The translations under genes were made by a program, and so were the position numbers. Shown here in pieces: positions 7,400-60,336 of a stretch of 64,000 nucleotides of DNA. The notes below the pieces were generated by a model. The model did no database searches and was not told the DNA's origin. It saw nothing but the letters and a program-made list of their open reading frames with translations. The first letter of the stretch is position 1. Each line of letters begins with the position of its first letter. This DNA is from a virus: the IMG/VR virus record IMGVR_UViG_3300005573_000005, one strand, 5' to 3'.

Positions 7400-7852
7400 A
7401 TGCAAATTTGTTTAGATTCTACAAAAAAACGTTTTCAGTCACTTGTTGAGAAAGGTTTTTTAGAAAGAGATGTTTTTGGGAATATTGCAAACGCTTTAGA
7501 TTTTATATCTGAAGATTCGGACCATTTAAGCTGGATAAGTAATTTTACTAAGATAAGGACTGCACTTGCACAAGGAATATGTTCTTTGAATCTTGCTATT
7601 TCTGAAAAAGAGAACGAAATTTTGACAACTAAAGCACAGATAGCAAGAAACAGCTCTGTTCAACCTTTTAAGTCTTTTGATAAAGGTTTTTTGTATAATG
7701 AAATAGAGAGTGATCCTGAAATACTTAAATTATTGTTTCAGAAAGCGGAGCTTGTTTCTTTGAAATCTTTTTTGTTAGATGTTTTTAATTCTATAAGTGA
7801 ACAAATATTAGTACAATACAGTATAAATCAAAGAAAGGAGGTATTAGAATGA
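7400..7852 (+). CDS. hypothetical protein
   Basis: The ORF is listed from 7388. ATG 7400 is preceded by GGAGG at the right spacing. Its stop overlaps the next start (ATGA). Confidence 0.45.
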   Translation: MQICLDSTKKRFQSLVEKGFLERDVFGNIANALDFISEDSDHLSWISNFTKIRTALAQGICSLNLAISEKENEILTTKAQIARNSSVQPFKSFDKGFLYNEIESDPEILKLLFQKAELVSLKSFLLDVFNSISEQILVQYSINQRKEVLE

Positions 7853-8874
7853 AAATTAATCCTATAGACATAGACTTCTACAGGAAAGATATGGAAGTAG
7901 ATGAAGAGGGGCGACCTTCTTTATTTTATGCGTTAGTGCCTGGCGATAATGTGATAAGAATTCTACCCCCTTGGGCTCCTCATGGGCGGTTTTCATTTTC
8001 TGTTTTTCGGCATTTTTCGCTTCCGCCTGAAGGAAAAAATTTATATTGCATGGAAACATGGAATAAACTTTGTCCTGTTTGTGAAGTTTTGAAGAAATAC
8101 CGTCCTTTGCTGGAAGAAGCCAGGACGTATAGTTCCAGGGTGCGTGTTTATGTGAATGCTCTTATACCTGCATTAGGGATAGAGCCGAAAATTGTAGGTT
8201 TACCGTGGAGCGTTTATACATGGATTAGAAATGAAATTGTGAAAGTAGGAGATATAACTAATCCTTTAACAGGAGCTAATATTTTAATTCAAAAGACAGG
8301 GAAAGGTTTTGGAACTAGATATGAATGTGTCAGGCTGAAAGATTCGCCATTAGCTTCGTCAAATGAAGAGATTGTTTTTATTTTATCTAAGTTGCACAAT
8401 CTCGACGAAATCTTTAAAGAAAACCCTGATACAATTAAACTTCTTTTTAAAGCTTCGGAAGAATTAGTAAAAGCTTTTGAAGTTCTTTTACAGAAACAAA
8501 AAACAAAACTTCCAGAGGAAGCTACTGTAGATAACAAAGTTCAAACAAGCGAATCTAAAAGCAGTCAGGTATTAAATAACGTTGCACCACAGTCACAGGC
8601 AAGCGTACCTCCTGCTCCTGCACCTGTATCTCCTCATTTGCCTTCTGTGGTGCAATCTTCAATTTCTGCTCAAGCTACTGTTAATCAGTTACACTCTGAA
8701 GTTGCTTCACAAAGTAATACTCAAACACAAGTGGAGCAAAATCAGAAACAAGTTTTAGTTAAGCCGAAAGATGCACCAGATTGTTGGGGTAGATATAAAA
8801 ATGTTTTTACTGAATGTGTACTTTGTGTGCATGAATCTACTTGTATAGCTGCAACAAATACAACAGGTAAATAA
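7849..8874 (+). CDS. T4 gp32-like single-stranded DNA-binding protein with an atypical C-terminal extension
   Basis: Matches T4 gp32 as I recall it: VIRILP (T4 VIRFLP); a His...Cys...CPVC zinc site (FRHF..YCMETWNKLCPVCEVL); YVNALI (T4 WANILV); GANILIQKTGKGFGTRYE (T4 GANFVLKVKQVSGFSNYDE). Confidence 0.75.
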   Translation: MKINPIDIDFYRKDMEVDEEGRPSLFYALVPGDNVIRILPPWAPHGRFSFSVFRHFSLPPEGKNLYCMETWNKLCPVCEVLKKYRPLLEEARTYSSRVRVYVNALIPALGIEPKIVGLPWSVYTWIRNEIVKVGDITNPLTGANILIQKTGKGFGTRYECVRLKDSPLASSNEEIVFILSKLHNLDEIFKENPDTIKLLFKASEELVKAFEVLLQKQKTKLPEEATVDNKVQTSESKSSQVLNNVAPQSQASVPPAPAPVSPHLPSVVQSSISAQATVNQLHSEVASQSNTQTQVEQNQKQVLVKPKDAPDCWGRYKNVFTECVLCVHESTCIAATNTTGK

Positions 8875-8879: not shown

Positions 8880-9947
8880 ATGAAGAAGTTATTAGAAAAA
8901 CTTGTGCAGTCTGTTAATAAGAACTTTCCAGGTGTTGCCAGTTTAGGAACAGATGTTATTTATGCTGATATAATAGATTCTGTTTCTACTGGTTGTACTC
9001 CATTGGATTGTGCTTTAATAGGTTCTGCAAATCCTAAAGGAGGGTTACCTTATGGACGCATGATAGAAATATTTGGTGATTCTTCTGAAGGGAAATCTAC
9101 ACTTGCAGAATCTGTTCTTGCACAGAATTCTAAGAAAGGTGGTATAGGAATACTTTTACTTACTGAAGGTTGTATAGATAAGAAGAGATTAGAGAAATTA
9201 GGTGTGGACCTTTCCAGTCTTGTAACACTTGAAGTATCTACGATAGAAGATGGTTTTGACAGTGCCGCTTTATTAGTTAAGCAGATTAAAGGTTTTACGT
9301 TAGAAGAGAAAAATAGAGATTCAGCTTTAGAGAAACTCAAAGACTTACCTATAGTAATTGTTTGGGATTCTATAAGCCAGTGTACTACAAGAGCAAGTTT
9401 TAAGTCTGATGATCCATCAAGATGGTCAGGGGGGATGGCAGATGTAGCAAGAGCTATAAGAGAAAAGCTTAGGGTTCACAGTTCAACTTTCTCTCGAGGA
9501 CGTGTTTGTTTTATTTTTGTTAGCCAAACAATTAAGCAGTTAGGTATGTGGGGTGGTTCTACTACTCCAGGTGGAAGCGGGATAAAATTTGCATCTTCTA
9601 TTCGTATGGAGATTTCAAGAACTGACTGGATTGATGGTAAATCGGGCAGGGAAGGAATAATTTCAGAAGTAAATATAGTTAAGTCTAAAGTATCAGTTCC
9701 TTTCAGGAAAGTTATTGTTCCTATAAGATTTGAAACAGGTATAGATAATGATTTATCACTATGGTATGCTCTTAAGGATACAGGGATTTTTAAATCTTCT
9801 GGTGGTTGGAATTATGTGACGTTGCCTGATGGGACCACTAAAAATTTTAGATGGGCTGATTACTACAAGATTTTGGATACTTCAATTGGTGAAAACAAAA
9901 CTATCAGGGATTATTTGCTTGAGAAAGTTAGTGAGCTTTACAAATGA
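8880..9947 (+). CDS. RecA-family recombinase (UvsX/RecA/RadA-like)
   Basis: Walker A IEIFGDSSEGKSTLA and Walker B-like PIVIVWDSIS. Sits next to the SSB, as in T4-type recombination modules. Confidence 0.7.
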   Translation: MKKLLEKLVQSVNKNFPGVASLGTDVIYADIIDSVSTGCTPLDCALIGSANPKGGLPYGRMIEIFGDSSEGKSTLAESVLAQNSKKGGIGILLLTEGCIDKKRLEKLGVDLSSLVTLEVSTIEDGFDSAALLVKQIKGFTLEEKNRDSALEKLKDLPIVIVWDSISQCTTRASFKSDDPSRWSGGMADVARAIREKLRVHSSTFSRGRVCFIFVSQTIKQLGMWGGSTTPGGSGIKFASSIRMEISRTDWIDGKSGREGIISEVNIVKSKVSVPFRKVIVPIRFETGIDNDLSLWYALKDTGIFKSSGGWNYVTLPDGTTKNFRWADYYKILDTSIGENKTIRDYLLEKVSELYK

Positions 9948-11347: not shown

Positions 11348-14212
11348 ATGAAATTTATAGTTTTCAGTGATTTACATGCTTCGGGTTTTAACTACTACAA
11401 GGCTTTAAACTATTCGCATCAGTTGTCTTGTGTGTATCATACTCTTATTTGGATAGCTGAATTGTGTAAAAAGAATAAACCAGATTTTGTAGTTTGTTGT
11501 GGCGATATTGTTAGTTCGAATTCTTATGTGGAAATACCTGTAAATAATGCTATTTTTGAAGGATTTTCTCAAATTGCTAAAGAAGTACCTGTTCATGTTG
11601 TGATGGGTAATCACGATTTAGATACTCGTACTAATGCTTCTTCTTATATAGAAGCTTTGAAAGAGATAAATAACGTTACTGTTTATACAGGAGTAAAAAG
11701 GGTTAGTATTAACAATAAAAATTTAATATTTGTTCCTTATACAGACGATTTTTCTATTATTCCTGAAGATTTGTTTAAGACTGCTTTTGATTATGCTTTT
11801 ATACATCTTCCTATACAAGGTGTTACTCTCGCTCCTGGTATTTTGGATGAAGGAATAGATCCTAAAAAATTTCTACTCTGGAATAGAGTCTTTGCTGGAC
11901 ATTATCATACTCCTCAAGATAACGCTTTAGGTTATAGTAATTTGTACTTTGTAGGGTCCGTTTTGTTCAGTAACTTTACTGAGAATTGTTTAACGGCTTT
12001 TGATAGAGGAGTAATTATTTGTGATAATGATTCTGTTATAAGATTGCCTAATCCTTTTACGCCGTTTTATACTACAGTTAGAAATAAAGAGGAACTTCTT
12101 TCTTATAAAAGAGATAAGAAGAGAACATTTCTCAGGATAAGTTTTGAGCCTGATGGCTTAGATTTATCCGAGTTTCTTAGGGTTTATACTATTAAGGCAG
12201 GGAAGGTAGAAAATGTGGCACGTACTAATTTATCTGTAAATACTGACCCTGCTGTTGCTGTAAAAGAGTATGGTAAGTTTAAGAATTTTTCAGATGATGT
12301 TATAGAATCAGGAATTCAAATATTAGATTCTGTAAAAGAAGATTTTAAAGTAAAGACTGTTCCTGTTTTTCATCGTTTTAATAAATTATATGTCCGTAAT
12401 TTTTTGTGTGTTTCTGAGATAACTCTTGATTTGAGTAATTTAGGTTCTGTTTTGGTAGAAGGTATTAACAAAGATGAGACCTGTTCTATTTCCTCAGGTG
12501 CAGGCAAATCAGCTTCTTTTGTTGAACCTATTTTATGGTGTCTTTTTGACAGGACTGTAAGAGGTGTTAAAAAAGATGCTGTAATTAATGAAAAAGCTGG
12601 TAAGGATTGTATTGTGCATCTGCAATTTACTTCGGGGAATAAAATTTATGATGTGGTAAGGTATAGGAAGCTGGATGGTTATAAAGTCTATGACAGGCTT
12701 TTAACAGATACAGGTATAAATATTTTTGAGAATGGTGTAGATATTTCTAAGAAAAAAGCATTAGATACGGATGCTTTAATTAGTTCTATAATAGGTTTAT
12801 CCTGGGAAGCTTTTGTTTCTCTTATTCTTATAGGAAGTGCGTCGCAGGGAAATTTTGTAACGTTTTCCAGTTTAGGACCGTTTGATAGAATCCTCTTTCT
12901 TGAGAGTTTTTTGCCTTGGCTTGAGATTTATGCTAAAGCTTATCAAAAAGCCTTGGATTTGTCTAACGATTTATCGAGTGAAGAAAATTCTTTAAATAGC
13001 AGTCTTGCTGTTTTAGATGAGAGAATTAAAGAGAAACAGAGTAAAATTTCTTCTTTTGAGCAAGAATCGAAAACATTTGAACTTTCAAGAGCTTCTAAGC
13101 TATCTGAAATAGACCAGAAGATTACAGCTTTAAAATCTAAGTTAGAAACGGTTGTCCTTGCTTTGAAGGAGAATAGAGAGAAGCTTTCTATTGTAGAATC
13201 TAAGGTGGAAGAACCTACAGATAAGTCTGCTGAAATTTCGGAACTTAATTCAATTATCAATATCAATGAAATAGAAAAGTCTAAACTGAAGAAAATGATT
13301 TCTAATGTAGCTAACGTTGTTTGTGATAAGTGTGGGCAACCTATTTCAGATGATTATAGAAATAAAGTGGTTGAAGAAAGCAAGTTAAAGATTTTAGAAC
13401 TCGATAATAGTATACTTATTGCTAAAAAGTCTCTTGAAGAAATTCTTAAGAAGAAGTCTGAGGAAGAAACAAGGTATAGGCAATGTCAGTCGCTTCTTAA
13501 TGAATTACAACATAAAATTTCTTCTTTAGATACAGATGAAAAACTTCTGAAGAGAGAATTAGAAATTCTACAGAGTTCTAAAATTGAAGTAGAGCAAAGT
13601 GAGAACCGTTATCTCTCTTTGATTGAGAAAGAGAAGACTGAACTCTTAAAGGCTGAGAAAGATTTTCAAGAATTGCAGAAGAAGCTTCAAGATTGTCTGA
13701 CAAGGAAGGAAAAGGTTTCGTTATGGGTACAAGGATTTTCACCTTCTGGTGTTCGTTCTTACATTCTTGACAGTGTATTGAATTTTATTAACGAACGTCT
13801 TAGTTTTTATTCTTCTCAGATTTTTGAGGATAATGTACTGGTTAAGTTTGTACCTTCTATTATTGGTAATAAAACTTCTATAGAAATCTTTTTAAGTTCT
13901 GCTAATTTCAAGAATCGTGTGTATTCTAATTGTTCTGGAGGAGAGAAACGTAGAGCAGATATTTCTATTGCATTAGCTATTCGTGATTTTGTGCAATCTT
14001 ATACAAATTCTAACTGTAATATTTTAATTGCTGATGAAATAATAGATTCGTTAGATAAGCGTTCAAGTTCTTTTGTTCTTACTTGTTTGAAAAGTGTTGC
14101 AGATAATGTATTTGTCATTTCTCATTCTCCAGATGTGAAAGGTCTACTCGATTCTGTAATAACTGTAGTTAAACAGAATGGTCAAACTACAATAGCTAAA
14201 GGAGGAATGTAA
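11348..14212 (+). CDS. fused SbcD/Mre11-like nuclease and SbcC/Rad50-like ATPase (T4 gp47+gp46 equivalents in one polypeptide)
   Basis: N-terminal phosphoesterase motifs: FSDLHAS, CCGDIVS, MGNHD, GHYH. Then Walker A SSGAGKSAS, a long coiled coil with a CxxC hook (VCDKCGQP), the ABC signature CSGGEKRRADISIALA, Walker B ILIADEIIDSLD and VFVISH. Confidence 0.8.
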   Translation: MKFIVFSDLHASGFNYYKALNYSHQLSCVYHTLIWIAELCKKNKPDFVVCCGDIVSSNSYVEIPVNNAIFEGFSQIAKEVPVHVVMGNHDLDTRTNASSYIEALKEINNVTVYTGVKRVSINNKNLIFVPYTDDFSIIPEDLFKTAFDYAFIHLPIQGVTLAPGILDEGIDPKKFLLWNRVFAGHYHTPQDNALGYSNLYFVGSVLFSNFTENCLTAFDRGVIICDNDSVIRLPNPFTPFYTTVRNKEELLSYKRDKKRTFLRISFEPDGLDLSEFLRVYTIKAGKVENVARTNLSVNTDPAVAVKEYGKFKNFSDDVIESGIQILDSVKEDFKVKTVPVFHRFNKLYVRNFLCVSEITLDLSNLGSVLVEGINKDETCSISSGAGKSASFVEPILWCLFDRTVRGVKKDAVINEKAGKDCIVHLQFTSGNKIYDVVRYRKLDGYKVYDRLLTDTGINIFENGVDISKKKALDTDALISSIIGLSWEAFVSLILIGSASQGNFVTFSSLGPFDRILFLESFLPWLEIYAKAYQKALDLSNDLSSEENSLNSSLAVLDERIKEKQSKISSFEQESKTFELSRASKLSEIDQKITALKSKLETVVLALKENREKLSIVESKVEEPTDKSAEISELNSIININEIEKSKLKKMISNVANVVCDKCGQPISDDYRNKVVEESKLKILELDNSILIAKKSLEEILKKKSEEETRYRQCQSLLNELQHKISSLDTDEKLLKRELEILQSSKIEVEQSENRYLSLIEKEKTELLKAEKDFQELQKKLQDCLTRKEKVSLWVQGFSPSGVRSYILDSVLNFINERLSFYSSQIFEDNVLVKFVPSIIGNKTSIEIFLSSANFKNRVYSNCSGGEKRRADISIALAIRDFVQSYTNSNCNILIADEIIDSLDKRSSSFVLTCLKSVADNVFVISHSPDVKGLLDSVITVVKQNGQTTIAKGGM

Positions 14213-31785: not shown

Positions 31786-31809
31786 AGAGATAGAAAGGAT
31801 TTGTATAAC

Positions 31810-32826
31810 ATGTCTGAAAAGTGTACTATATTAGATAAGTCGTTTGAAGTTGTAAGAGGAGTTCCTGGTTCTCGTGAATTTCCCACAATAGTGTCTTACG
31901 TAGATTTTTTAAACAGTGTAGGAGCAAAAGCTACTTTACGTAACGGTAAAATTGATGTAGAAAGGAGTATTTTGCCTGCGTTTGTTTATATTCAGAATGG
32001 TAAGATAGCTTATCCGTTTGGTTGTGTAAAGGGTGCTTTTGTATTGGATTACATTTCTTCTCTTCGCTCTTTGGAGAACTGTCCTGAATATGTAGGTGGT
32101 TTTTTCTCTTGTACAGATACGCAAATTACTTCTCTTCAAGGCGCTCCTGAGCATGTAGGTGAGGATTTCGATTGTTCTTATTGTAAAAATCTGAAATCTC
32201 TAAAAGGTGCTCCGAAGTACGTAGGCAGAGATTTTAATTGTTTACGTTGTGAGAATCTTACATCTCTTGAAGGAGCTCCTGAGTATGTAGGCAGAAATTT
32301 TAACTGTTTTCGTTGTGAGAATCTTTTATCCCTGAAAGGAGCTCCAAAATGTGTAGGTGGATCTTTTTATATTTTGGCTTGTTTTCAGTTGATATTTTTG
32401 GAAGGAGCTCCCGACTATGTAAGTGGAGATTTTAATTGTTCTTATTGCTATAATCTTACATCTTTGGCGGGTGCTCCGAAGTATGTAGGCAGAAATTTCA
32501 ACTGTTTTCGTTGCGAGAATCTTAAATCTCTCGAAGGAGCTCCCGAATATGTAGGCAGAGATTTTAATTGTTTACGTTGTGAGAATCTTAAATCTCTTGA
32601 AGGTGCTCCTGAGCATGTGGGCAGAAATTTCGATTGTTCGGAGTGTGTAAAGTTGATTTCTCTGGAGGGCGTTCCTGAGTATATAGGCGGAGATTTTGAT
32701 TGTTCTAAATGTGAAAAGTTAACATCTTTGGAAGGCTTAAATATTGTGAAAGGTAAAATTTATGCTAAGGAAATACCTATAAAAGATTTAGCTGGTTTTC
32801 CAGAAAATAAAGTTGTTTTAAAGTAG
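31810..32826 (+). CDS. Cys-containing 22-residue LRR-like repeat protein, paralog 1 (degenerate N-terminal tag MSEKCTILDKSFE)
   Basis: Pre-repeat module (SREFPTIVSYVDFLNSVGAKATLRNGKIDVE..). About 11 units of L.GAPEYVG.DF.C..C.NL.S. Conserved cap LNIVKGKIYAKEIPIKDLAGFPENKVVLK. Confidence 0.7.
   Translation: MSEKCTILDKSFEVVRGVPGSREFPTIVSYVDFLNSVGAKATLRNGKIDVERSILPAFVYIQNGKIAYPFGCVKGAFVLDYISSLRSLENCPEYVGGFFSCTDTQITSLQGAPEHVGEDFDCSYCKNLKSLKGAPKYVGRDFNCLRCENLTSLEGAPEYVGRNFNCFRCENLLSLKGAPKCVGGSFYILACFQLIFLEGAPDYVSGDFNCSYCYNLTSLAGAPKYVGRNFNCFRCENLKSLEGAPEYVGRDFNCLRCENLKSLEGAPEHVGRNFDCSECVKLISLEGVPEYIGGDFDCSKCEKLTSLEGLNIVKGKIYAKEIPIKDLAGFPENKVVLK
32401..32524 (+). repeat. 124-bp tract identical, bar 1 mismatch, to 41425..41548 in paralog 3
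   Basis: Base-by-base comparison shows the only difference is aaatttCa versus aaatttTa. The flanking repeat units are clearly more diverged by eye. Confidence 0.9.
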
Positions 32827-34729: not shown

Positions 34730-34731
34730 AA

Positions 34732-35172: not shown

Positions 35173-35175
35173 ATA

Positions 35176-35718
35176 ATGCTTATTTTTGTGAAACAGTTAG
35201 AGAAGGACTCTGTTGTTCTGCATATTATTTTAGGGAAAGAGTCCTATTTTATGTTTGAGTGTTTTGGTTTTATAGCGGAGGAAATTACTTCGCTAATTAG
35301 TGATTTGGTTAAAGAAGGTAAAAGGATTTACTTACATATTGTTAATAACGATGTAAGCGAGTACGAGTTATGGAAAAAGCTTACTATGCTTGGAATTCCT
35401 GTATTGGTACATAATATTGTCAAAGTGGAAAAAAGGGAAACAGGCGAAACTCGTGAAGTTTTTCCTGTAGAAGATGTTAGTTCGGTCTTGCAAGAAGATA
35501 TTAAAGAGAAGAGTACAAAAGAAGCAAAAGAAGTGCAGAAGGAGCTTCAGAAAATGCACAACAAGTCTGCTACTGAGTGTTTTTATTGTGGTGGTACAGC
35601 TGATATTATACCTGGAACGTTTCCAGTTATGTGTAAGAGTTGTTTTGAGTTAAACATAGGGCTTTCTGCGGGTATGAGAAAGACTAAGAGAAAGAAAGCT
35701 TCCCATGATAAAGACTGA
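35176..35718 (+). CDS. hypothetical protein with a C-terminal zinc ribbon
   Basis: CFYCGGTADIIPGTFPVMCKSC followed by a basic tail. Confidence 0.45.
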   Translation: MLIFVKQLEKDSVVLHIILGKESYFMFECFGFIAEEITSLISDLVKEGKRIYLHIVNNDVSEYELWKKLTMLGIPVLVHNIVKVEKRETGETREVFPVEDVSSVLQEDIKEKSTKEAKEVQKELQKMHNKSATECFYCGGTADIIPGTFPVMCKSCFELNIGLSAGMRKTKRKKASHDKD

Positions 35719-36085
35719 TAATTCAGATAACAATGAAATTCTTATCTTATTAGGTTCTTTAAAAGCTTCTGTACAAGACGTACAGAAGATGGTGAAGGAG
35801 CAGTCCGATTTATTAAGAGAAGTCCGAGAGACAGGCTGTCCTTTTGGACGTCAGACAAGAGAGTTAGTTTCTCATCTTCGAGGTAATAATTATGAGAATG
35901 GGAATTCTATTATTGTTTCAAGGACATTTTTGAAAAAATATGGATGGCATATTTTTATTTTGTGCGTTTTAGGCTTAATTTATTTACGTGATTTAGTTAT
36001 TTCTCGTTATAATGTTGATATTTTAGTAGATAAAGTTTGTGAGCGAGTACTACAGAATGAGAATATTAGAAGTGTCCCTAAATGA
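35705..36085 (+). CDS. hypothetical membrane protein (one predicted TM helix)
   Basis: Hydrophobic span WHIFILCVLGLIYLRDLVI near the C terminus. Confidence 0.4.
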   Translation: MIKTDNSDNNEILILLGSLKASVQDVQKMVKEQSDLLREVRETGCPFGRQTRELVSHLRGNNYENGNSIIVSRTFLKKYGWHIFILCVLGLIYLRDLVISRYNVDILVDKVCERVLQNENIRSVPK

Positions 36086-36440
36086 TTTTGTTAATTTTTT
36101 GTTAGAAGGATATGCTATAGGACCTTCAGCAAGAGTTTGGAAGACTTTGTCTAAGCAAGATAGAGAGTTTTTGAGTAATCTTGCTCAAGTTGCAGCAGAC
36201 TATAATGTCATACGGTTGAATTATGGTCCGAAACTTACTACAGGACGTTACGTTTCACGTACTATTGAGCCATATTCGCTTCGGTTTCGTAAGTTACGGA
36301 TAGGTAAGGTTCCAGTTTTATTCGGGTTTGACGTTGTAAAAGGGCATATAAAGATGTTTCCTATTTATCGTATTCATTCTTTTGAATATAGAGGCAGGAA
36401 GTTCGAGCCACGTTGGCCAGTTGAATTTAAGAAGGATTAA
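36039..36440 (+). CDS. hypothetical protein (weak WYL-like resemblance)
   Basis: EPYSLRFRKLRIGKVPVLFGFDVVKGHIKMFPIYRIHSFE. GTG 36039 or ATG 36057 as start. Confidence 0.3.
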   Translation: MSEYYRMRILEVSLNDFVNFLLEGYAIGPSARVWKTLSKQDREFLSNLAQVAADYNVIRLNYGPKLTTGRYVSRTIEPYSLRFRKLRIGKVPVLFGFDVVKGHIKMFPIYRIHSFEYRGRKFEPRWPVEFKKD

Positions 36441-36445: not shown

Positions 36446-39004
36446 ATGAGTATTATAAACTACCCAAGACCAACATTATCGCTTACTGTTTGGAAGCTTG
36501 AAGGTGATACTTATGTTTTGTCTGATGAAGCACGAGAAGTTATTCTGTCTGCACTTCGTAGTTTTCCTTACGTGGATTTGTTAGATATTGCTAAAGAAAT
36601 ACACATAGTAGGTTCTATAACTACAAATACTTATGAAGACACTTGCGATGTGGATGTTCATATAATTCCTGATGAAGATAAACTTAAAAAATATCTTAAC
36701 TCTGCTAATTTATCGTTTGAAGATTTTAATGAGAGAGTAAAGAAATTTTATAAGAAAGAGATTTTTAAAATAGGTACTCATCCTGTTGAAATTTATATAC
36801 AAGCTAATCCTGCACAGGACTTATTATCTGATGGCGTATATTCTTTTACAAAAGATGTTTGGAAGAAAGGACCTTTGTTACGTGGTGAAACTTATAATCC
36901 GAGAAAAGTTTTTGCACACATTTACGAACTTTTGAAGAAGAAAATTAAGAATGTAGATGTTTTGTTAGGACAAGTTAAGCGTGATGCTATTGATTATTCG
37001 GCTATAAAAAAGGTTATAGATAAACTTTCTCCTGAAGCACGTAAAGTTCTTGAGAATGAATTGGAAGAAATTGTTGATAATTTGTTCAAGAATATTGACG
37101 AACTTTTAAAAGTTAAAAAAGAATGGGTAGAATTACGCAGAAAATCTTCTGCTCCTTCTTCCCCAGAGGAGGCGTTGAATTCTGTTAAACTGGTCAGAAA
37201 ATGGACAGATGCGAATGCTTTATTTAAGCTTCTTGATTTATACGAATACTTGTATATAATTTCTGAGTTAGAAAAAGCTGTTTCTGATGATGTTTTAACT
37301 CCTTATGAAATTGAAGATATAAGGAAGAAATTGTCATATAGGAAGGATGAATCTGTTAGGATGCTCTATGATATTAGTTTATTAGAATCAATTCTCGACG
37401 GTCATTATCTTTTAGAGGACCGTGAGACTCGTAGACAGGACTTAAAGAAGAAACGTGATTTAGGTTACTTAAAAGTAACTGATGCGGATATAGAAACTGC
37501 TCTGGATATAAGTGAGCCTTATGCTTACTGGATACTTATCCAGGTAACAAAAGGTACAATTAAGCTTCCTCAAGATAAAGACCTTATAGCAAAATTAATA
37601 AAAGATTTTGATTTTGTGAAAAAGTCTTCTCGTTTTACAGGTTCTAAAGATATCTATGCGTATAAAACTCTTCAAGACTTGAAAGCTCAAGTAGAAAAAT
37701 CTAAGACCTTTGAAATTTCTAAGGGAGAGCAGAAACGCAGAGCAACTAAAGAAGGTCAAAGGATAGTAGCTGAGGACCCTCCTTACACAGTAATAGAGAT
37801 AACAACTCCTGAGGCTTCTGCTAAACTTCTTAGAGATACAAAATGGTGTGTAAAAGACCCTGATTATTTCGCTAAATATATTAAATACGGACCTATTTAT
37901 TTAGTCTTAAAGAACGGTAAGAAATTTTTATGCTACAGTGACTATGATGGGTTTAGTGATGTGGAGAATCATCCTGTTAGGGAAGTTGATAAAAAATTGT
38001 TTGATATTTTTGTAAGATTAAAAACTAAAGTAGCTAGGTTTGCGTCTCCGGTTTCAGAGCTTTCTTTGGGCCAATATGTAAGTTTTTTAAGAGATAGCGG
38101 ATTAAAAGTTACTCTACGTAATGGTAAGATTGATGTAGAAGGAGATGTTTCTAAAAAGTTTGTTTATTGCAGAAACGGTAAAATAGTATATTCTTTTGGT
38201 AAAGTTAGTGGTAATTTTTTAGTTGAAGGACTACCACTTCGTACTCTTGAAGGAGCTCCTGAGTACGTAGGTGGTGACTTTGATTGTTCTGGATGTTATG
38301 AACTTACATATCTAAAAGGAGCTCCCAGACGTGTAGAAGGTGTTTTTCGTTGTATTGATTGTAAAGATCTTCTTTCCCTTGAAGGTGCTCCGGAGTATGT
38401 GGGAAAAGATTTTGATTGTCGTCATTGTTACAGTCTTACATCTCTAAAAGGAGCTCCAGAGCGTGTAGGTAGAGATTTTGATTGTTCTTATTGTCACGGT
38501 CTTACATCTCTAAAAGGAGCTCCTAGGCGTGTAGAAGGCAATTTTAATTGTTCAGAATGTGAAAATCTTAAATCTCTTGAAGGAGCACCAGAGTATGTAG
38601 GCGGAAATTTTTATTGTTGGGCTTGTAAAAATCTTACTTCTTTTGAAGGTGCTCCAGAGTATGTGGGCGGAAATTTATATTGTTTGGGTTGTGAAAATCT
38701 TAAATCTCTTCAAGGCGCTCCTGAGTATGTTGGTGGAGATTTTGATTGTTCTTATTGCCCTAGTCTTACATCTCTAAAAGGAGCTCCAGAGCGTGTAGAA
38801 GGTCATTTTGTTTGTTCTGGTTGTATAAACCTTACATCTCTTGAAGGAGCTTCTGAGTACGTAGGTGGCGACTTTTATTGTGCTTATTGTCCTAATTTAA
38901 CTTCTTTGAAAGGTTTAAAAGTAGTAAAGGGTAAAATTTATGCTAAAGGTACTCCTATAAAAGATTTAGCTGGTTTTCCAGAAGATAAAGTTGTTTTGAA
39001 GTAA
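36446..39004 (+). CDS. three-part protein: N-terminal minimal nucleotidyltransferase (Pol-beta fold), a central domain of unknown function, and a C-terminal Cys-LRR-like repeat array (paralog 2)
   Basis: NTase signature IHIVGSITTNTYEDTCDVDVHI plus a downstream HPVEIYIQ. The central domain is shared with 40141..41856. Then the pre-repeat module, about 12 x 22-aa units, and the cap LKVVKGKIYAKGTPIKDLAGFPEDKVVLK. Confidence 0.65.
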   Translation: MSIINYPRPTLSLTVWKLEGDTYVLSDEAREVILSALRSFPYVDLLDIAKEIHIVGSITTNTYEDTCDVDVHIIPDEDKLKKYLNSANLSFEDFNERVKKFYKKEIFKIGTHPVEIYIQANPAQDLLSDGVYSFTKDVWKKGPLLRGETYNPRKVFAHIYELLKKKIKNVDVLLGQVKRDAIDYSAIKKVIDKLSPEARKVLENELEEIVDNLFKNIDELLKVKKEWVELRRKSSAPSSPEEALNSVKLVRKWTDANALFKLLDLYEYLYIISELEKAVSDDVLTPYEIEDIRKKLSYRKDESVRMLYDISLLESILDGHYLLEDRETRRQDLKKKRDLGYLKVTDADIETALDISEPYAYWILIQVTKGTIKLPQDKDLIAKLIKDFDFVKKSSRFTGSKDIYAYKTLQDLKAQVEKSKTFEISKGEQKRRATKEGQRIVAEDPPYTVIEITTPEASAKLLRDTKWCVKDPDYFAKYIKYGPIYLVLKNGKKFLCYSDYDGFSDVENHPVREVDKKLFDIFVRLKTKVARFASPVSELSLGQYVSFLRDSGLKVTLRNGKIDVEGDVSKKFVYCRNGKIVYSFGKVSGNFLVEGLPLRTLEGAPEYVGGDFDCSGCYELTYLKGAPRRVEGVFRCIDCKDLLSLEGAPEYVGKDFDCRHCYSLTSLKGAPERVGRDFDCSYCHGLTSLKGAPRRVEGNFNCSECENLKSLEGAPEYVGGNFYCWACKNLTSFEGAPEYVGGNLYCLGCENLKSLQGAPEYVGGDFDCSYCPSLTSLKGAPERVEGHFVCSGCINLTSLEGASEYVGGDFYCAYCPNLTSLKGLKVVKGKIYAKGTPIKDLAGFPEDKVVLK
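37371..39004 (+). repeat. segmental duplication, copy A (partner 40141..41856)
   Basis: Long collinear DNA similarity. For example 37428-37600 versus 40198-40370 differs at only a few positions per 100 nt by eye. The copy starts at the internal Met codon of MLYDISLLE. Confidence 0.85.
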
Positions 39005-39678: not shown

Positions 39679-40144
39679 AAGATATAAAGGTAAATGGGGC
39701 AGGTTCAGAAAAGACACAGGTGAATTAAAGTCTACTCATGATACTAAAGAAAAATGTCTTGCAGCTATTCGAGCTGTTTATTGGAGTATGGGTAAGAGAG
39801 GTGAAAAGCACGAAGGTGTTACTACTACAGCTTCTATAGCTACTTTACCTAAATCTTTTGGTTATTTAAGACCTTTCTATGTATGTAATACTTGTAGAGT
39901 AATTTTAGACCAACCTACTTGTCCTGTTTGTAAAGGGAAGGCGGTTAAGATTTCTTCGTTAGAGGATTTAGGTATTACTGTAAAAGAACTAACAGATTCT
40001 TTTTATGATGGTTTACTTACGGAAGATAAAAAGTCCTTGGCAGATCTTCTGAAGAAGATGAATTGGTTGATTGCAACTATTATAGGTGCAGGTGCTTTTG
40101 CTTTGAAAATAAAGCGTGATTTGTCTAAAGTGGACTTAAAATGA
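39662..40144 (+). CDS. hypothetical protein with a zinc ribbon and a C-terminal TM helix
   Basis: ATG 39662 follows ggagg. CNTCRVILDQPTCPVCKGK, and a hydrophobic WLIATIIGAGAFALKI. Confidence 0.4.
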   Translation: MPYICKRYKGKWGRFRKDTGELKSTHDTKEKCLAAIRAVYWSMGKRGEKHEGVTTTASIATLPKSFGYLRPFYVCNTCRVILDQPTCPVCKGKAVKISSLEDLGITVKELTDSFYDGLLTEDKKSLADLLKKMNWLIATIIGAGAFALKIKRDLSKVDLK

Positions 40145-41856
40145 CGATTTACGATACAAATTTGATTGAATTTGTTCTTGACGGCTATTATCTCTTAGAG
40201 GACCGTGAGACTCGCAGGCAGGACTTAAAGAAAAAACGTGATTTAGGTTACTTAAAAGTAACTGATGCGGATATAGAAACTGCTCTGGATATAAGCGAGC
40301 CTTACGCTCACTGGATACTTATTCAGGTAACAAAAGGTACAATTAAGTTTCCTCAGGATAAAGACTTTATAACTCAGTTATTAAAAGACTTTGATTTTGT
40401 GAAAAAGTCTTCTCGTTTTACGGGTTTTAAAGATATCTATGCGTATAAAACTCTTCAAGACCTTAAAGCTCAAGTAGAGAAATCTAAGACCCTTGAAATT
40501 TCTAAAGGTGAGCAGAAACGCAGAGCAACTAAAGAAGGTCAAAGGGTAGTAGCTAAAGACCCTTCTTACACGGTGATAGAGATAACAACTCCGGAGGCTT
40601 CTGCTGAACTCCTTAGAGGTACAGAATGGTGTGTAAAAGATCCTGATTATTTTGCTGATTATATTGAATATGGACCTGTTTATTTAGTTTTAAAGAACGA
40701 TAAGAAATTTTTATGCTACAGTGATTATGATGGGTTTAGCGATATGGAAGATCATCCTGTTAAGAGAGTAGATAAGAAATTGTTGGGTATCTTTATAAAA
40801 TTAGGAACTAAAGTACTCAGGTTTGTAAGTGCCTCAAGTTTAGATTTATCTTTAGAACAATATGTAAGTTTTTTAAAAGACAGAGGCGTGAAAGCTACTA
40901 TAAGGGACGGCAAGATTGATGTAGAAGGCGATATTTTTGCGGAGTATGTTTATTATAAAGGAAGCGAAATAGTTTATCCTTTTGGTAAAGTTAGTGGTAA
41001 TTTTTCAGTTGAAGGACTTCCACTTCGTACTTTAAAGAATTCTCCTGAGTACGTAGGAGACGACTTTAATTGTTCTGTATTTGATAAACTTATTACTCTT
41101 GAAGGAGCTCCAGAGCGTGTAGAAGGCACTTTTGATTGTTCGTATTGCGATGGTCTTACTTCCCTTGAAGGAGCACCAGAGTATGTGGGGCGGATGTTTA
41201 ATTGTTCTCAGTGTCACGGTCTGACATCTCTAAAAGGAGCTCCCAGGCGTGTAGAAGTGTTTTGGTGTTCTGGTTGTGAAAATCTTAAATCTCTTGAAGG
41301 AGCTCCGGAGCATGTTGGCAGAGATTTTGATTGTTCTTATTGCGATAGTCTTACATCACTAAAAGGAGCTCCCAGGCGTGTAGAAGTGTTTAAGTGTTAT
41401 TCCTGTAAAAATCTTATCTCCCTTGAAGGAGCTCCCGACTATGTAAGTGGAGATTTTAATTGTTCTTATTGCTATAATCTTACATCTTTGGCGGGTGCTC
41501 CGAAGTATGTAGGCAGAAATTTTAACTGTTTTCGTTGCGAGAATCTTACATCTCTAAAAGGAGTTCCTAAGCGTGTAGGTAGAGATTTTAAGTGTTTTTA
41601 TTGCCGTAGTCTTACATCTCTTGAAGGAGCTCCTGAGTATGTAGGTAAATTTTTTGATTGTTCTTATTGCGATAGTCTTACATCTCTAAAAGGAGCTCCA
41701 GAGTACGTAGGTGGCGATTTTTATTGTGCTTATTGTTCTAAGCTTACTTCCTTACAAGGTCTGAAAGAAGTGAAAGGTATAATTTATGCTGAAGGAACTC
41801 CTATAAAAGATTTAGCAGGTTTTCCAGAAGATAAAGTTTATTTTGGGACAAAATAA
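40141..41856 (+). CDS. Cys-LRR-like repeat protein, paralog 3: an N-terminally shortened duplicate of 36446..39004 that lacks the NTase domain
   Basis: MTIYDTNLIEFVLDGYYLLEDRETRRQDLKKKRDLGYLKVTDADIETALDISEPYAHW... aligns with residues about 309 onward of the 852-aa protein. About 12 repeat units and the cap LKEVKGIIYAEGTPIKDLAGFPEDKV. Confidence 0.7.
   Translation: MTIYDTNLIEFVLDGYYLLEDRETRRQDLKKKRDLGYLKVTDADIETALDISEPYAHWILIQVTKGTIKFPQDKDFITQLLKDFDFVKKSSRFTGFKDIYAYKTLQDLKAQVEKSKTLEISKGEQKRRATKEGQRVVAKDPSYTVIEITTPEASAELLRGTEWCVKDPDYFADYIEYGPVYLVLKNDKKFLCYSDYDGFSDMEDHPVKRVDKKLLGIFIKLGTKVLRFVSASSLDLSLEQYVSFLKDRGVKATIRDGKIDVEGDIFAEYVYYKGSEIVYPFGKVSGNFSVEGLPLRTLKNSPEYVGDDFNCSVFDKLITLEGAPERVEGTFDCSYCDGLTSLEGAPEYVGRMFNCSQCHGLTSLKGAPRRVEVFWCSGCENLKSLEGAPEHVGRDFDCSYCDSLTSLKGAPRRVEVFKCYSCKNLISLEGAPDYVSGDFNCSYCYNLTSLAGAPKYVGRNFNCFRCENLTSLKGVPKRVGRDFKCFYCRSLTSLEGAPEYVGKFFDCSYCDSLTSLKGAPEYVGGDFYCAYCSKLTSLQGLKEVKGIIYAEGTPIKDLAGFPEDKVYFGTK
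41425..41548 (+). repeat. 124-bp tract identical, bar 1 mismatch, to 32401..32524 in paralog 1
   Basis: See 32401..32524. Encodes LEGAPDYVSGDFNCSYCYNLTSLAGAPKYVGRNFNCFRCENL in both genes. Confidence 0.9.
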
Positions 41857-41968: not shown

Positions 41969-42991
41969 ATGTCTAAACGTTATATTATAGATAAGTTATT
42001 TGAAGCCGTAGATGCGGATAAAACGCCTGTAAGTTCTCGTGAGTTCCCCACAATAGAGTCTTATGTTGACTACTTGAACAGTAAGGGGATAAAAGCATCT
42101 TTACGTAATGGTAAGATTGATGTAGAAGGTGACATTTCTGCGAAGTATGTTTATTACAAAGGAGACGAAATAGTTTATCCTTTTGGCAAAGTTAATGGTA
42201 ATTTCTCAGTTGAAAAACTTCCGCTTCGTACTTTAAAGAACTCACCTGAGTGGGTAGGAGGTGGCTTTAATTGTTCTGCATGTGATAAACTTATTACTCT
42301 TGAAGGAGCTCCTGAGTATGTAAGTGGTAATTTTTATTGTCTTAATTGCGGTAGCCTTACATCTCTTGAAGGAGCTCCAGGGCGTGTAGGTGGAGACTTT
42401 AGTTGCTCTTATTGTGATAAGCTTACATCTCTTGAAGGAGCTCCTAGGCGTGTAGGTAGAGATTTTGATTGTTCTGCTTGTAAAAATCTTATTTCCTTAG
42501 AAAGTGCTCCATCGTATGTAGGTAGAGATTTTGATTGTTCTTATTGTCATGGTCTCACATCTCTAAAAGGATTTCTTGAGTATGTGGGTGGTAATTTTTA
42601 TTGTGACAAATGCGATAGCCTTACATCTCTTGAAGGGGTTCCAGAGTATGTAGGCGGAGATTTTGGTTGTTCTTATTGCGATAATCTTACATCTTTAAAA
42701 GGAGCTCCTAAGCGTGTAAATGGTGTTTTTGATTGTTCTCATTGTGGGGGGCTGACTTCCTTAGAAGGAGCTCCTAAGTATGTAGATAGATATTTTAATT
42801 GCTCTTCTTGTCATAACCTTACTTCTCTTGAAGGAGCTCCTGAGTATGTAGGAGGCGACTTTAATTGTTCTCGTTGTCCTAAGCTTACTTCCTTACAAGG
42901 TCTGAAAGAAGTGAATGGTAAAATTTATGCTTCAAAAACTCCTATAAAAGATTTAGCTGGTTTTCCAGAAGATAAAGTTATTTTGGAATAA
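41969..42991 (+). CDS. Cys-LRR-like repeat protein, paralog 4, with the N-terminal MSKRYIIDKLFE tag
   Basis: Strong RBS (aggagg). Tag, then the pre-repeat module (SREFPTIESYVDYLNSKGIKASLRNGKIDVEGD..), about 10 units, and the cap LKEVNGKIYASKTPIKDLAGFPEDKVILE. Confidence 0.7.
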   Translation: MSKRYIIDKLFEAVDADKTPVSSREFPTIESYVDYLNSKGIKASLRNGKIDVEGDISAKYVYYKGDEIVYPFGKVNGNFSVEKLPLRTLKNSPEWVGGGFNCSACDKLITLEGAPEYVSGNFYCLNCGSLTSLEGAPGRVGGDFSCSYCDKLTSLEGAPRRVGRDFDCSACKNLISLESAPSYVGRDFDCSYCHGLTSLKGFLEYVGGNFYCDKCDSLTSLEGVPEYVGGDFGCSYCDNLTSLKGAPKRVNGVFDCSHCGGLTSLEGAPKYVDRYFNCSSCHNLTSLEGAPEYVGGDFNCSRCPKLTSLQGLKEVNGKIYASKTPIKDLAGFPEDKVILE

Positions 42992-43093: not shown

Positions 43094-43258
43094 GTGTTGC
43101 TTAATGAAACTAATACAATTAGTCAATTAAAAAACGTTCGTTTTGAGATTGAAAGCCAGGTTTTAGAAGTTCAGAAAGAACTTTCTAAGTTTAGAGAACC
43201 CGACTCAGGATTACGTTTTTGTATCAGAAAATTCATTGCCTTAGTTGATAAAGTATAA
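43094..43258 (+). CDS. small hypothetical protein
   Basis: GTG 43094 lies 7 nt after AAGGAG. The listed TTG 43058 start lies inside the conserved intergenic motif. Confidence 0.3.
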   Translation: MLLNETNTISQLKNVRFEIESQVLEVQKELSKFREPDSGLRFCIRKFIALVDKV

Positions 43259-43622
43259 CAGTTTTGTTCAGATTTTTAAGAGGACTATGTTCCGTTTTTT
43301 CTGGAAAACTAAACAGGTTAAAGAACATTTGAAAAATCATCCGCATTGTGCTGTTTGCGGATATTTACCTAAATTTGGTCATAATGAAGTTCATCATATA
43401 ATACCTGTTTCAGTTGACCCTTCTTTAAAGAATGATCCTGAAAATTTAGTGACACTTTGTCACCATTGTCATAAAAGGTTTGGGCATTTCTCTAATTGGA
43501 AATACTGGAATCCAGATTTACGAAAGATTACACGTAATTTTTCTATAGGTATGGAAATGCTTTCTGCAGAAATAGCTTTTAAGGTTAATTATGAAAAAAG
43601 AAAAAATACTAAAGATTCTTGA
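43245..43622 (+). CDS. HNH endonuclease
   Basis: HPHCAVCGY..NEVHHIIPVSVDPSLKNDPENLVTLCHHCHKRFGH (Cys4 plus the H-N-H core). ATG 43287 is an alternative start. Confidence 0.75.
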   Translation: MIKYNSFVQIFKRTMFRFFWKTKQVKEHLKNHPHCAVCGYLPKFGHNEVHHIIPVSVDPSLKNDPENLVTLCHHCHKRFGHFSNWKYWNPDLRKITRNFSIGMEMLSAEIAFKVNYEKRKNTKDS

Positions 43623-59784: not shown

Positions 59785-60336
59785 ATGTCTAAACGTTATA
59801 TTATAGACAAATTGTTTGAGGCTGCCGGTGTGGTTTTTGAAATAAAGTTTCCTACAATAGAGTCTTATGTTGGTTTCTTAAACAGTAAAGGACTAAAAGC
59901 TACTCTACGAGATGGTAAGATTGATGTGGTAGGAGATGTTTGGTCAAGATTTATTTATATTGAGGATGAAAAGATAGTTTATCCTTTTGGTAAAATTAAC
60001 GGTGGTTTTTCAGTTTCAGGGCTTCCTCTTCATACTCTTGAAGGAGCTCCTAAGTATGTAGGTGGATTTTTTGATTGTTCTTCTTGCCGTAATCTTACAA
60101 CTCTAAAAGGAGCTCCCAGGCATGTAGAAGGCCATTTTGATTGTTCTAATTGTATAAACCTTACATCCCTTGAAGGCGCTCCTGAGTACGTAGGGGATAA
60201 CTTTTATTGTGCTTATTGTCCTAATTTAACTTCTTTGAAGGGTTTAAAGGTAGTAAAGGGTAAAATTTATGTTAGAGGAACTCCTATAAAAGACTTTTCA
60301 GGTTTTTCAAAAGATAAAGTTAAATTGTCTTTTTAA
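59785..60336 (+). CDS. short Cys-LRR-like repeat protein, paralog 5, with the N-terminal MSKRYIIDKLFE tag
   Basis: Tag, pre-repeat module (FPTIESYVGFLNSKGLKATLRDGKIDVVGD..), about 4 units, and the cap LKVVKGKIYVRGTPIKDFSGFSKDKVKLSF. Confidence 0.7.
   Translation: MSKRYIIDKLFEAAGVVFEIKFPTIESYVGFLNSKGLKATLRDGKIDVVGDVWSRFIYIEDEKIVYPFGKINGGFSVSGLPLHTLEGAPKYVGGFFDCSSCRNLTTLKGAPRHVEGHFDCSNCINLTSLEGAPEYVGDNFYCAYCPNLTSLKGLKVVKGKIYVRGTPIKDFSGFSKDKVKLSF

Follow-up and report, generated by a model that had tools for sequence, protein, structure and literature searches.

Five paralogous repeat genes and their predicted fold

The window, meaning the whole 64-kb stretch of viral DNA analysed here, encodes five paralogous repeat proteins (P1 to P5), all in direct orientation and all as intact ORFs (Table 1). 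The repeat period is 66 nt, corresponding to 22 aa, and P1 to P5 contain 10, 10, 11, 10 and 3 units, respectively; this falls within the 20-30 residues per tandem repeat expected of leucine-rich repeat (LRR) proteins. P1 to P4 form a cluster in which P1 is the most diverged member, with 67-71% nucleotide identity to the other three, and the N-terminal domains of P2 and P3 are 88% identical over 300 nt. Repeat units were found only inside the five complete ORFs, and no silent or partial donor cassettes were detected. An exact-product look-up of the P1 product with a TTG start returned no match, and the called gene starts at the ATG at 31810. A leader, MSKRYIIDKLFE, is common to three of the five paralogs (degenerate in P1) and to one unrelated neighbouring gene, near the head genes. 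The window also encodes an exonuclease, a ligase, a T4-like portal, a gp23-like capsid protein and an S77 prohead protease, as well as the recombination genes listed in Table 1.

Table 1. Positions of the genes and sequence tracts in the 64-kb window
Feature	Position	Strand	Evidence and remarks
Single-strand DNA binding protein (SSB)	7849..8874	+	phrog_1192 E=5e-17
UvsX/RecA-like recombinase, putative strand-invasion catalyst	8880..9947	+	phrog_97 E=7e-51; precomputed PF00154 RecA_N match
Fused SbcD/SbcC-like (Mre11/Rad50, T4 gp47/46-like) nuclease, putatively resecting DNA ends	11348..14212	+	phrog_77 E=2e-93, phrog_100 E=8e-37, Pfam Metallophos
P1, 10 units, 338-aa product on record	31801..32826 (called start ATG 31810)	+	ORF and unit calls
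Tract copy in P1 (units 6-7), probable donor	32401..32524	+	123/124 match to 41425-41548
P2, 852 aa, 10 units preceded by a large N-terminal region	36446..39004	+	ORF and unit calls
P3, 571 aa, 11 units including two of 63 nt	40141..41856	+	ORF and unit calls, mosaic tests
Older, weaker P2-P3 exchange signal	40980..41017 (partner 38194-38231)	+	Run of 19 polymorphic sites with one mismatch, pairwise p 0.003
Tract copy in P3 (units 7-8), probable recipient	41425..41548	+	Unit matrix and permutation test
Older, weaker P3-P4 exchange signal	41738..41774 (partner 42879-42915)	+	37-nt exact match; run of 17 polymorphic sites, pairwise p 0.0007
P4, 340 aa, 10 units	41969..42991	+	ORF and unit calls
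HNH endonuclease gene, with no evidence tying it to the tract	43245..43622	+	Pfam HNH E=4e-11; phrog_144 E=1e-15
P5, 183 aa, 3 units, directly downstream of the major capsid gene	59785..60336	+	Absent from the original prediction

The original prediction had labelled the family LRR. The label holds for the repeat pattern and the predicted fold, but no Pfam LRR model matched P1 to P4 at E values up to 0.01, or P4 and P5 at E values up to 10. Some homologues elsewhere carry precomputed PF12799 matches. For the conserved LRR segment LxxLxLxxN/CxL, the consensus of 61 homologues, VGGxFxCxxNxLTSL, is LRR-like with a Cys ladder, and the copies in the window read FxCxxCxxLTSL, longer by one residue and with Cys replacing Asn. 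The AlphaFold2 model of P3 has a pLDDT of 97-98 over the repeats. The top 13 structural matches in the PDB were all LRR proteins or LRR-containing complexes, including InlA, InlJ, SDS22, SspH1 and YopM at the top, although the best E value was only 2e-3 and TM-scores did not exceed 0.41. InlA was also the best match in a PDB sequence search (E=0.012), and the top matches in BFVD included viral 'leucine-rich repeat' proteins. The proteins are predicted to form an LRR-like solenoid with internal cysteines and, judged from the LRR pattern, both Cys of FxCxxC would lie at core positions.

The closest comparison is with the 21-22-residue LRRs of the Listeria internalins, especially the cysteine-ladder LRR of InlJ (PDB 3bz5). 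The phage repeats are likewise 22 residues long, and the consensus of the wider family, FxCxxNxLTSL, shares with InlJ the Cys in the LxxLxL-type segment. Unlike the internalins, the copies in the window have two Cys per repeat (CxxC), the second three residues further on, and the phage proteins have phage-specific N- and C-terminal caps, variable N-terminal domains and no Pfam LRR match. Vibrio phages, Lak phages and megaphages encode multiple copies of relatives of this family.

A near-identical tract in P1 and P3

Direct base comparison of 32401-32524 in P1 with 41425-41548 in P3 confirmed that the two segments, 9 kb apart in the genome, are identical at 123 of 124 positions. The sole difference, C at 32499 and T at 41523, is synonymous (TTC/TTT, Phe). 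The tract is bounded by mismatches at 32400 and 32525, and its length of ~124 nt corresponds almost exactly to two 66-nt repeat units. Identity starts with the Glu codon of LEGAP and excludes the Leu codon before it, which is TTG in one copy and CTT in the other; the two-unit peptide originally quoted for the tract therefore has the right sequence but extends one residue beyond the identical block at its N-terminal end. With 98 nt of uninterrupted identity, the tract contains the longest exact repeat of the entire 64-kb window. The second longest, of 62 nt, lies in the N-terminal domain common to P2 and P3, and within the repeat arrays the next exact repeats measure 42, 40 and 37 nt. Neither an Rfam match nor a tRNA was found.

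The four clustered arrays align colinearly, and the tract occupies the same array position and lies at the same distance from the C-terminus in P1 and P3. On the left, the tract ends at a point of collapsing homology, P1 unit 5 being the most degenerate unit and P3 unit 6 having a 3-nt deletion. Its right end lies within the conserved 'NL-x-SL' junction, and column frequencies showed that the inter-unit junctions are conserved at the DNA level. Since units 6-7 of P1 and units 7-8 of P3 are positionally equivalent, no unit or cassette has moved, and the shuffling of cassettes envisaged in the original prediction is not borne out.

We compared the 41 repeat units all-against-all, giving 820 pairs of 66-nt units. 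Mean identity was 68.6% (SD 7.9%, n=820). The pairs P1u6/P3u7 and P1u7/P3u8 were clear outliers, both being 97% identical, and were the only two of the 820 pairs above 88%; the best other pair reached 87.9%. The large number of near-identical pairs that had been named as speaking against an exchange was not seen. The units flanking the tract were much less alike (P1u5/P3u6, 56%; P1u8/P3u9, 71%), in agreement with the prediction that neighbouring units are far more diverged. Given the match frequency of each column, the 124 columns of the tract would show one mismatch or none by chance with a probability of ~2e-21. A home-made GENECONV-style test, with 10,000 column permutations over all six paralog pairs, found a P1-P3 run of 36 consecutive concordant polymorphic sites, or 45 with one mismatch, where the permutation maxima were 21 and 26 (global p <1e-4). 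This is the excess of run length by which Sawyer/GENECONV logic recognises gene conversion.

Synonymous sites were homogenised as well, another hallmark of gene conversion. Over all units, positions with the same amino acid used the same codon in 63% of cases, compared to 41/43 in the two focal pairs. Selection at the protein level therefore does not explain the match. Site patterns also differed between tract and flanks, as is characteristic of a converted segment. Among two-state sites, the tract had 11 that group P1 with P3 against P2 with P4 and zero that were P1-only or P3-only, the single C/T mismatch lying outside this count. In contrast, the flanks were dominated by P1-only sites (69 over 504 nt on the left and 32 over 299 nt on the right), and the P1P3 grouping was rare there (7 and 6 sites). 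Together, the permutation result, the discordant site patterns and the homogenised synonymous sites uphold the original claim of a discrete, recent, non-reciprocal exchange between P1 and P3.

The closest paralog of P3 alternates along the gene in the order P4/P2/P1/P2/P4, and two further signals link P3 to P4 and to P2 (Table 1). P3 is a patchwork of older exchanges with P2 and P4, and the P1-P3 event is the latest of several.

The direction of transfer was probably from P1 to P3, as suggested by the second unit of the tract and by the site patterns. Apart from P1u7, the best matches of P3u8 are all P1 units (u3, 85%; u4, 83%; u8, 80%), and P1u7 itself belongs to a P1-specific subfamily (u3, u4, u7 and u8) whose members are 80-88% alike. 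The only GRNFNCFRCENL-type unit outside P1 is the one in the tract copy of P3. For the 11 shared-derived sites, ~15 are expected from the P1-only rate and ~5 from the P3-only rate, giving a likelihood ratio of ~5 for P1 to P3. The first tract unit is of the consensus type and stands slightly nearer to units of P2, P3 and P4 (82-86%) than to the rest of P1 (no more than 79%), and the distances from the tract to P2 and to P4 are intermediate between the predictions of the two directions.

Tract copies in independent assemblies and the search for relatives

The ENA contig ERZ27247235 contained both tract copies, including the distinguishing C/T difference, and two JGI contigs (3300027863) contained one copy each. 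The ENA and JGI contigs were 100% or 99.994% identical to the window, the lone SNP lying elsewhere, at 30716. Contigs from three further samples were identical to it over other parts of the genome. Alternative cassette arrangements, which had been proposed as something to look for among natural variants, did not appear at the contig level: in the two samples with tract-covering contigs (JGI 3300027863 and ENA ERZ27247235), the sequences were identical there and revealed no population variants. At 90% identity, the protein clusters of P2, P3 and P5 had one member each. One JGI assembly is split into two contigs at ~36.2-36.4 kb, with the break at ~36.23 kb. We considered this break as a possible variant junction and rejected it, the start of the contig being a hairpin end artefact.

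A megablast of 39-44 kb against INPHARED gave no match, and neither did an IMG/VR search with P3 and the neighbouring 310-aa protein. Among JGI metagenome contigs, P3 retrieved nothing beyond a match of 33% identity. The nearest sequence outside this genome, among 5.8 billion proteins, had 47-55% protein identity. No third copy of the tract was present in the window and an extra 12 kb from other contigs, together ~76 kb of the ~97-kb genome. Because no variant allele or close relative showing the pre-conversion state was found in the collections searched, neither assignment of the donor nor dating by comparison was possible. Literature searches on LRR gene conversion in phages and on PcfJ in phages found nothing relevant.

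Origin of the shared tract

The analysis demonstrates the identity of the tract, its statistical excess, its discordant site patterns, its positional homology and its reproducibility across assemblies. We consider it likely that the tract was left by a single gene conversion, recent, short and non-reciprocal, between P1 and P3 within the same phage genome, probably from P1 to P3. In the proposed course of events, a break or gap in one repeat array would have arisen during recombination-dependent replication of the phage. A 3' end may then have invaded the paralogous array through the highly conserved inter-unit junction DNA GAAGGAGCTCC, which encodes EGAP; repair synthesis would have copied two units between positionally equivalent units, and the event would have been resolved without crossover. 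The exchange could have been carried out by the UvsX-like recombinase, the SSB and the Mre11/Rad50-like nuclease of the phage, a set that, as judged from gene content, would be sufficient for the event.

The closest enzymatic comparison is with T4, in which break repair with co-conversion involves UvsX, gp32, exonucleases, a resolvase and a ligase (PMC2988022). Genes resembling those of T4 recombination-dependent replication and double-strand break repair (UvsX, gp32, gp46/47), as well as an HNH gene, are present in the window. In homing, co-conversion takes place at allelic sites of co-infecting genomes, spreading from the cleavage site (PMC3016280; PMC2988022). In contrast, the phage tract involves paralogs 9 kb apart in a single genome, with no known cleavage site. 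The HNH gene reported at 43245-43622 is real, but its proposed role as supplier of the break finds no support: the two tract copies are 1.7 kb and 10.7 kb away, and the UvsX, SSB and Mre11/Rad50-like set needs no dedicated nuclease. The usual targets of free-standing HNH enzymes of phages are co-infecting genomes in which these enzymes are absent, not their own genome (PMC2988022).

Several other origins of the tract were weighed. That a third donor converted both copies, either a further paralog in the unseen ~20 kb or the homologous gene of a co-infecting phage, is unlikely. It is favoured by the fact that ~76 kb of the ~97-kb genome was examined, by the hint of opposite origins in the two tract units, and by recombination between co-infecting phages, which is common. 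On the other hand, the additional 12 kb and the window hold no further copy, no relative exceeds ~55% protein identity among the 5.8 billion proteins, the phage's own paralog aside, and two independent conversions with identical endpoints are less parsimonious than one event. An assembly artefact, in which reads of one paralog were threaded into the other or similar paths were collapsed, is highly improbable. The genes are repetitive, typical final k-mers and reads are longer than 124 nt, so that errors in a low-k graph are conceivable, and one JGI assembly was broken at about 36.2-36.4 kb. However, independent samples and pipelines (JGI, and ENA, where the 'k141' name suggests MEGAHIT) gave the same tract copies, the ~70% background identity is too low for bubble merging, and the JGI break, a hairpin end artefact, falls at neither tract. 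Selection acting directly on the sequence is exceedingly improbable, whether as strong purifying selection, as a constraint on codons or through a DNA or RNA element embedded in the tract, for example the template/variable repeat pair of a diversity-generating retroelement (DGR), even though the tract is in frame and the unit junctions are conserved in DNA. Constraint on codons or protein and an embedded RNA element are ruled out by the unit matrix, with two outlying pairs, by the confinement of synonymous identity to the tract, and by the Rfam and tRNA nulls. A DGR pair was also rejected: the single mismatch is C/T and not adenine-specific, and no reverse transcriptase was identified with Pfam or PHROGs among 45 different ORFs scanned, including 38 of the 41 ORFs of at least 200 aa and three neighbours of the LRR cluster.

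Programmed or nuclease-stimulated diversification, in which the HNH enzyme cuts the arrays, paralogs donate cassettes and binding-surface units are shuffled, is very unlikely. Consistent with it are the position of the HNH gene 250 nt past the last clustered paralog, the five paralogs in direct orientation and the presence of more than one mosaic signal. Such a system accords poorly with a single recent tract beside signals that are old and short, and with repeat units confined to five intact ORFs, none of them in silent or partial cassettes. Variants would be expected from frequent switching, and none was found among the contigs, those covering the tract in two samples being identical and the P2, P3 and P5 clusters single-sequence, which disfavours this explanation. 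The tract also sits at the same position in both arrays, with nothing shuffled. PMC2988022 bears on both sides: phage endonucleases of the free-standing type are able to cleave sites hundreds to thousands of bp away from the gene encoding them, but the known HNH enzymes of this kind target genomes in which the HNH gene is absent.

Comparison with known systems and significance for the family

In Neisseria pilE/pilS and Borrelia vlsE, a variable gene receives short segments copied from paralogous donors, and lamprey VLRs are assembled from LRR cassettes. These systems have silent promoterless cassettes, a single site of expression and switching at a high frequency, which shows up as heterogeneity of the population. 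The phage tract resembles them in that a segment was copied from a paralogous donor into a repeat gene, the VLR units being LRR modules. It differs in that each phage copy is a complete ORF and all contigs recovered are identical.

Plant NBS-LRR clusters provide a case of interlocus gene conversion and concerted evolution in a repeat multigene family. The LRR-containing PSA surface antigen family of Leishmania is reported to evolve by recombination (PMC2584048). The phage family shares with both a short non-reciprocal tract between tandem paralogs, ends in conserved repeat junctions and a mosaic history, and the tract was found by the same Sawyer/GENECONV logic. The differences are that the host of the event is a ~97-kb uncultured T4-like phage, that the family is uncharacterised, that only one tract is clearly recent and that no link to selection on specificity is apparent.

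Collectively, the finding is a clean, statistically solid and unsurprising interlocus gene conversion within a phage genome. The process is textbook, explained by the phage's own recombination genes, and involves no new mechanism. A bolder reading, in which the five cysteine-ladder LRR-like paralogs would be virion-packaged, injected effectors or anti-defence proteins and recurrent segmental conversion, possibly stimulated by the HNH enzyme, would generate new binding specificities against the host, is decidedly unlikely. It draws on the leader MSKRYIIDKLFE near the head genes and likens the paralogs to the internal proteins of T4, which are diverse and have a capsid-targeting leader as their sole common feature. 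The gene conversion between P1 and P3 shows an uncharacterised multi-copy family of repeat proteins evolving as a mosaic; trees built from these genes would therefore be misleading, a point of importance for both annotation and phylogeny. The conversion also hints mildly at pressure on the family to vary, and the function of these proteins is a more interesting question than the conversion itself.

Features of the repeat-protein family

The window comes from an uncultured tailed phage (~97 kb, 34% G+C) without a close relative in INPHARED. Five paralogous genes, P1 to P5, encode repeat proteins with a conserved ~60-aa N-cap, 22-aa units (LxGAPxxVGxxFxCxxCxxLxS) and a conserved C-cap; P5, which lies directly downstream of the major capsid gene, was missing from the original prediction. 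P2 and P3 share an extra upstream domain (88% identity over 300 nt). The N-terminal 305 aa of P2 (36446-37360, + strand) match phrog_36119 (E=4e-11) and, weakly and below threshold, the nucleotidyltransferase-fold families NTP_transf_2 (E=0.005) and MTPAP-like (E=0.002); P2 may join an enzyme-like domain to the repeat module. This module is widespread, with over 2,260 homologues detected; in many it is joined to a PcfJ-like or another N-terminal domain, and in Vibrio phages, Lak phages and megaphages it is multi-copy.

The paralogs had been described as LRR proteins. The 22-residue period, the LRR-like consensus of 61 homologues with its cysteine ladder (VGGxFxCxxNxLTSL) and structural comparison speak for this. 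An AlphaFold2 model of P3 had a pLDDT of 97-98 across the repeats, and its top 13 PDB structural matches, among them SDS22, InlA, the InlJ 'cysteine ladder', SspH1 and YopM, were all LRR proteins or LRR-containing complexes, although with TM-scores ≤0.41 and a best Foldseek E-value of 2e-3. Internalin A was the best match in a PDB sequence search (E=0.012). However, Pfam LRR models gave no hit to P1-P4 with an E cut-off of 0.01, nor to P4 and P5 with one of 10. We call the paralogs a predicted LRR-like solenoid with two cysteines per turn, a likeness short of demonstrated membership of a curated LRR family.

Coordinates of the paralogs, concordant runs, recurring peptides and phage genes
Feature	Position	Strand	Details
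P1	31801-32826	+	341 aa from TTG 31801; 338 aa as called (ATG 31810); 10 units
P2	36446-39004	+	852 aa; 10 units
P3	40141-41856	+	571 aa; 11 units, two of 63 nt
P4	41969-42991	+	340 aa; 10 units
P5	59785-60336	+	183 aa; 3 units
P3-P4 run	41738-41772 / 42879-42913	+	17 sites; pairwise p = 0.0007
P2-P3 run	38194-38231 / 40980-41017	+	19 sites incl. one mismatch; pairwise p = 0.003
KLFE peptide, N-terminal	41969-42010, 59785-59826, 60375-60416, 31810-31854
KLFE peptide, C-terminal	31735-31785, 33969-34013
Family-A DNA polymerase	4283-7339	+
SSB	7849-8874
UvsX/RecA-like recombinase	8880-9947
Fused SbcD/SbcC-like nuclease	11348-14212
5'-3' exonuclease			recombination gene
Ligase			recombination gene
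HNH gene	43245-43622	+	genuine
T4-like portal			structural gene
gp23-like capsid protein			≤35% identity to known ones
S77 prohead protease			structural gene
Tail sheath and baseplate			structural genes

Two side observations concern genes near the paralogs. Between P1 and P2, at 32851-33783 and 34010-34729 (+), lie a phosphatidylserine-decarboxylase-family gene (PF02666, E=7e-29) and a gene for a 310-aa phrog_12759 protein, which may be auxiliary metabolic genes. The peptide (K)(R/T)(Y/F)IIDKLFE, underlain by 26-nt exact DNA repeats, recurs at gene ends. As MSKRYIIDKLFE it forms the N-terminus of P4, P5 and an unrelated 374-aa gene adjoining P5, with a degenerate form in P1; as SVK(R/T)FIIDKLFE it ends the products of two small genes, one directly upstream of P1. 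It could serve as a common docking or capsid-targeting peptide in the manner of the T4 internal-protein leader (PMC3012670), but the copies at C-termini are at odds with a simple N-terminal signal.

Probable gene conversion between P1 and P3

As originally predicted, positions 32401-32524 in P1 and 41425-41548 in P3 match at 123 of 124 bases. The sole difference (C at 32499, T at 41523) is synonymous in a Phe codon (TTC/TTT). The block stops at mismatches at 32400 and 32525, beyond which in-register identity drops to random on the left and to 70-85%, the level usual between any two repeat units, on the right. No exact repeat in the 64-kb window is longer than a 98-nt segment of the tract. The second longest (62 nt) lies in the N-terminal domain common to P2 and P3, and the next longest within the arrays are 42, 40 and 37 nt.

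We compared all 41 units of P1-P4 in an all-against-all DNA matrix. Over the 820 pairs, mean identity was 68.6% (SD 7.9%). The two focal pairs, P1u6/P3u7 and P1u7/P3u8 (units numbered along each array), were each 97% identical, the best other pair 87.9%, and the neighbouring pairs were as diverged as had been claimed (P1u5/P3u6 on the left, 56%; P1u8/P3u9 on the right, 71%). With match frequencies taken from each column, one mismatch or fewer across the 124 columns has a chance probability of ~2e-21. Where amino acids agree, codons were identical at 63% of positions over all units versus 41/43 in the focal pairs. This excess and the matrix outliers argue against a large set of near-identical pairs kept alike by constraint.

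A protein-guided codon alignment of the P1-P4 arrays, which are colinear except for one extra 21-aa unit in P3, contained 419 polymorphic sites. In a GENECONV-style test with 10,000 column permutations, the longest concordant P1-P3 run spanned 36 polymorphic sites (45 with one mismatch allowed), against permutation maxima over all pairs of 21 and 26 (global p <1e-4). Site patterns were discordant: the flanks show P1 as the most divergent copy (69 and 32 P1-only sites), whereas within the tract the counted two-state sites include none private to P1 or to P3, and 11 sites group P1 and P3 against P2 and P4. Together, these results support gene conversion between P1 and P3. In a sliding window, the nearest paralog of P3 switches from P4 to P2, P1, P2 and P4 along its length, which makes P3 a patchwork with the P1-P3 tract simply as its newest patch.

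The tract comprises units 6-7 of P1 and 7-8 of P3, which stand opposite units 6-7 in both P2 and P4 in the alignment, and its copies are equally far from the C-terminus. This makes the exchange a conversion between positionally equivalent segments, not cassette relocation. Since both copies now have the same sequence and one original version is lost, the event was non-reciprocal, as proposed. On its left the tract ends at the family's most conserved DNA motif (GAAGGAGCTCC), next to the unit pair with the poorest match, in which P1u5 is degenerate and lacks its first Cys and P3u6 is short by 3 nt; on its right it ends within the conserved NL-x-SL junction. Such endpoints would be expected if strand exchange requires local identity.

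The second tract unit (LAGAPKYVGRNFNCFRCENL) belongs to a subfamily otherwise confined to P1, whose u3, u4, u7 and u8 are 80-88% alike; besides P1u7, P3u8 best matches P1u3 (85%), P1u4 (83%) and P1u8 (80%). The 11 shared-derived sites fit the flank P1-only rate (~15 expected) better than the P3-only rate (~5), and a likelihood ratio computed from site-pattern counts favours P1 as donor (~5). The first tract unit is consensus-type and uninformative on direction, and the distances separating the tract from P2 and P4 fall between the predictions of the two directions. On these sequence patterns, transfer from P1 to P3 seems about twice as likely as the reverse.

Independent assemblies and alternative origins of the tract

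The same phage was found in five samples (JGI 3300027863, JGI 3300009503, ENA ERZ27247235, SRR6049666 and SRR5248875). Identity to the window over the overlapping parts of the recovered contigs is 100% or 99.994%, and tract-bearing contigs show one SNP only, at 30716. Both copies of the tract, with the one C/T difference between them, are on a single ENA contig. The JGI 3300027863 assembly has them on separate contigs, since it splits the genome into pieces of 9.3 kb (window 27083-36355) and 87.8 kb that overlap by ~126 nt. A variant junction at the start of the 87.8-kb contig (Ga0207433_10000541) was rejected: positions 1-9 (window ~36221-36229) are a reverse-complement hairpin of downstream sequence, an assembly end artefact. 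Elsewhere, the prohead protease/scaffold-like gene (56357-58156) contains an in-frame tandem repeat of 48-nt period (57382-57558, +), where an ENA contig aligned in two overlapping pieces (99.8% identity with gaps), which suggests that copy number differs between samples.

Because contigs from separate assemblies match, misassembly of the tract is very unlikely. Constraint, or the presence of an embedded element, for instance a DGR, is scarcely credible: the unit matrix refutes it, synonymous sites are homogenised, the sole mismatch is C/T, no reverse transcriptase was found among the 45 ORFs scanned and there was no Rfam hit. Shuffling of repeat cassettes, as originally suggested, whether programmed or HNH-driven, is improbable. 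The tract occupies the same array position in both colinear genes, silent cassettes were not found, the recovered contigs gave no sign of alternative cassette arrangements, and P2, P3 and P5 are each the sole sequence of their protein cluster at 90% identity. A third donor, or an intergenomic origin, has an outside chance: no third copy was present in the window plus 12 kb of additional genome, but one could lie in the other ~20 kb.

Recombination genes of the phage

T4 break repair with co-conversion is attributed in PMC2988022 to UvsX, gp32, phage exonucleases, resolvase and ligase. By this comparison, the phage's own recombination genes supply all that is needed for ectopic repair from a paralogous template, and conversion would have proceeded by these genes. 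The HNH gene had been proposed to supply the breaks, but no observation links it to the repeat arrays. PMC2988022 describes free-standing phage HNH and GIY-YIG enzymes as cutting or nicking related genomes in which they are absent, which drives conversion between co-infecting genomes. As separate observations, an N-terminal domain of the uracil-DNA-glycosylase superfamily (PF03167, E=3e-22) is fused to the exonuclease and polymerase domains of the DNA polymerase, and a gene strongly matching the Druantia defence protein DruA domain (17107-18363, +; PF14236, E=6e-71) has a DNA methyltransferase gene on one side and the packaging genes on the other.

Gene conversion between P1 and P3 is thus a supported reading; it adds one more case of a well-known process, here in a phage gene family that is uncharacterised.
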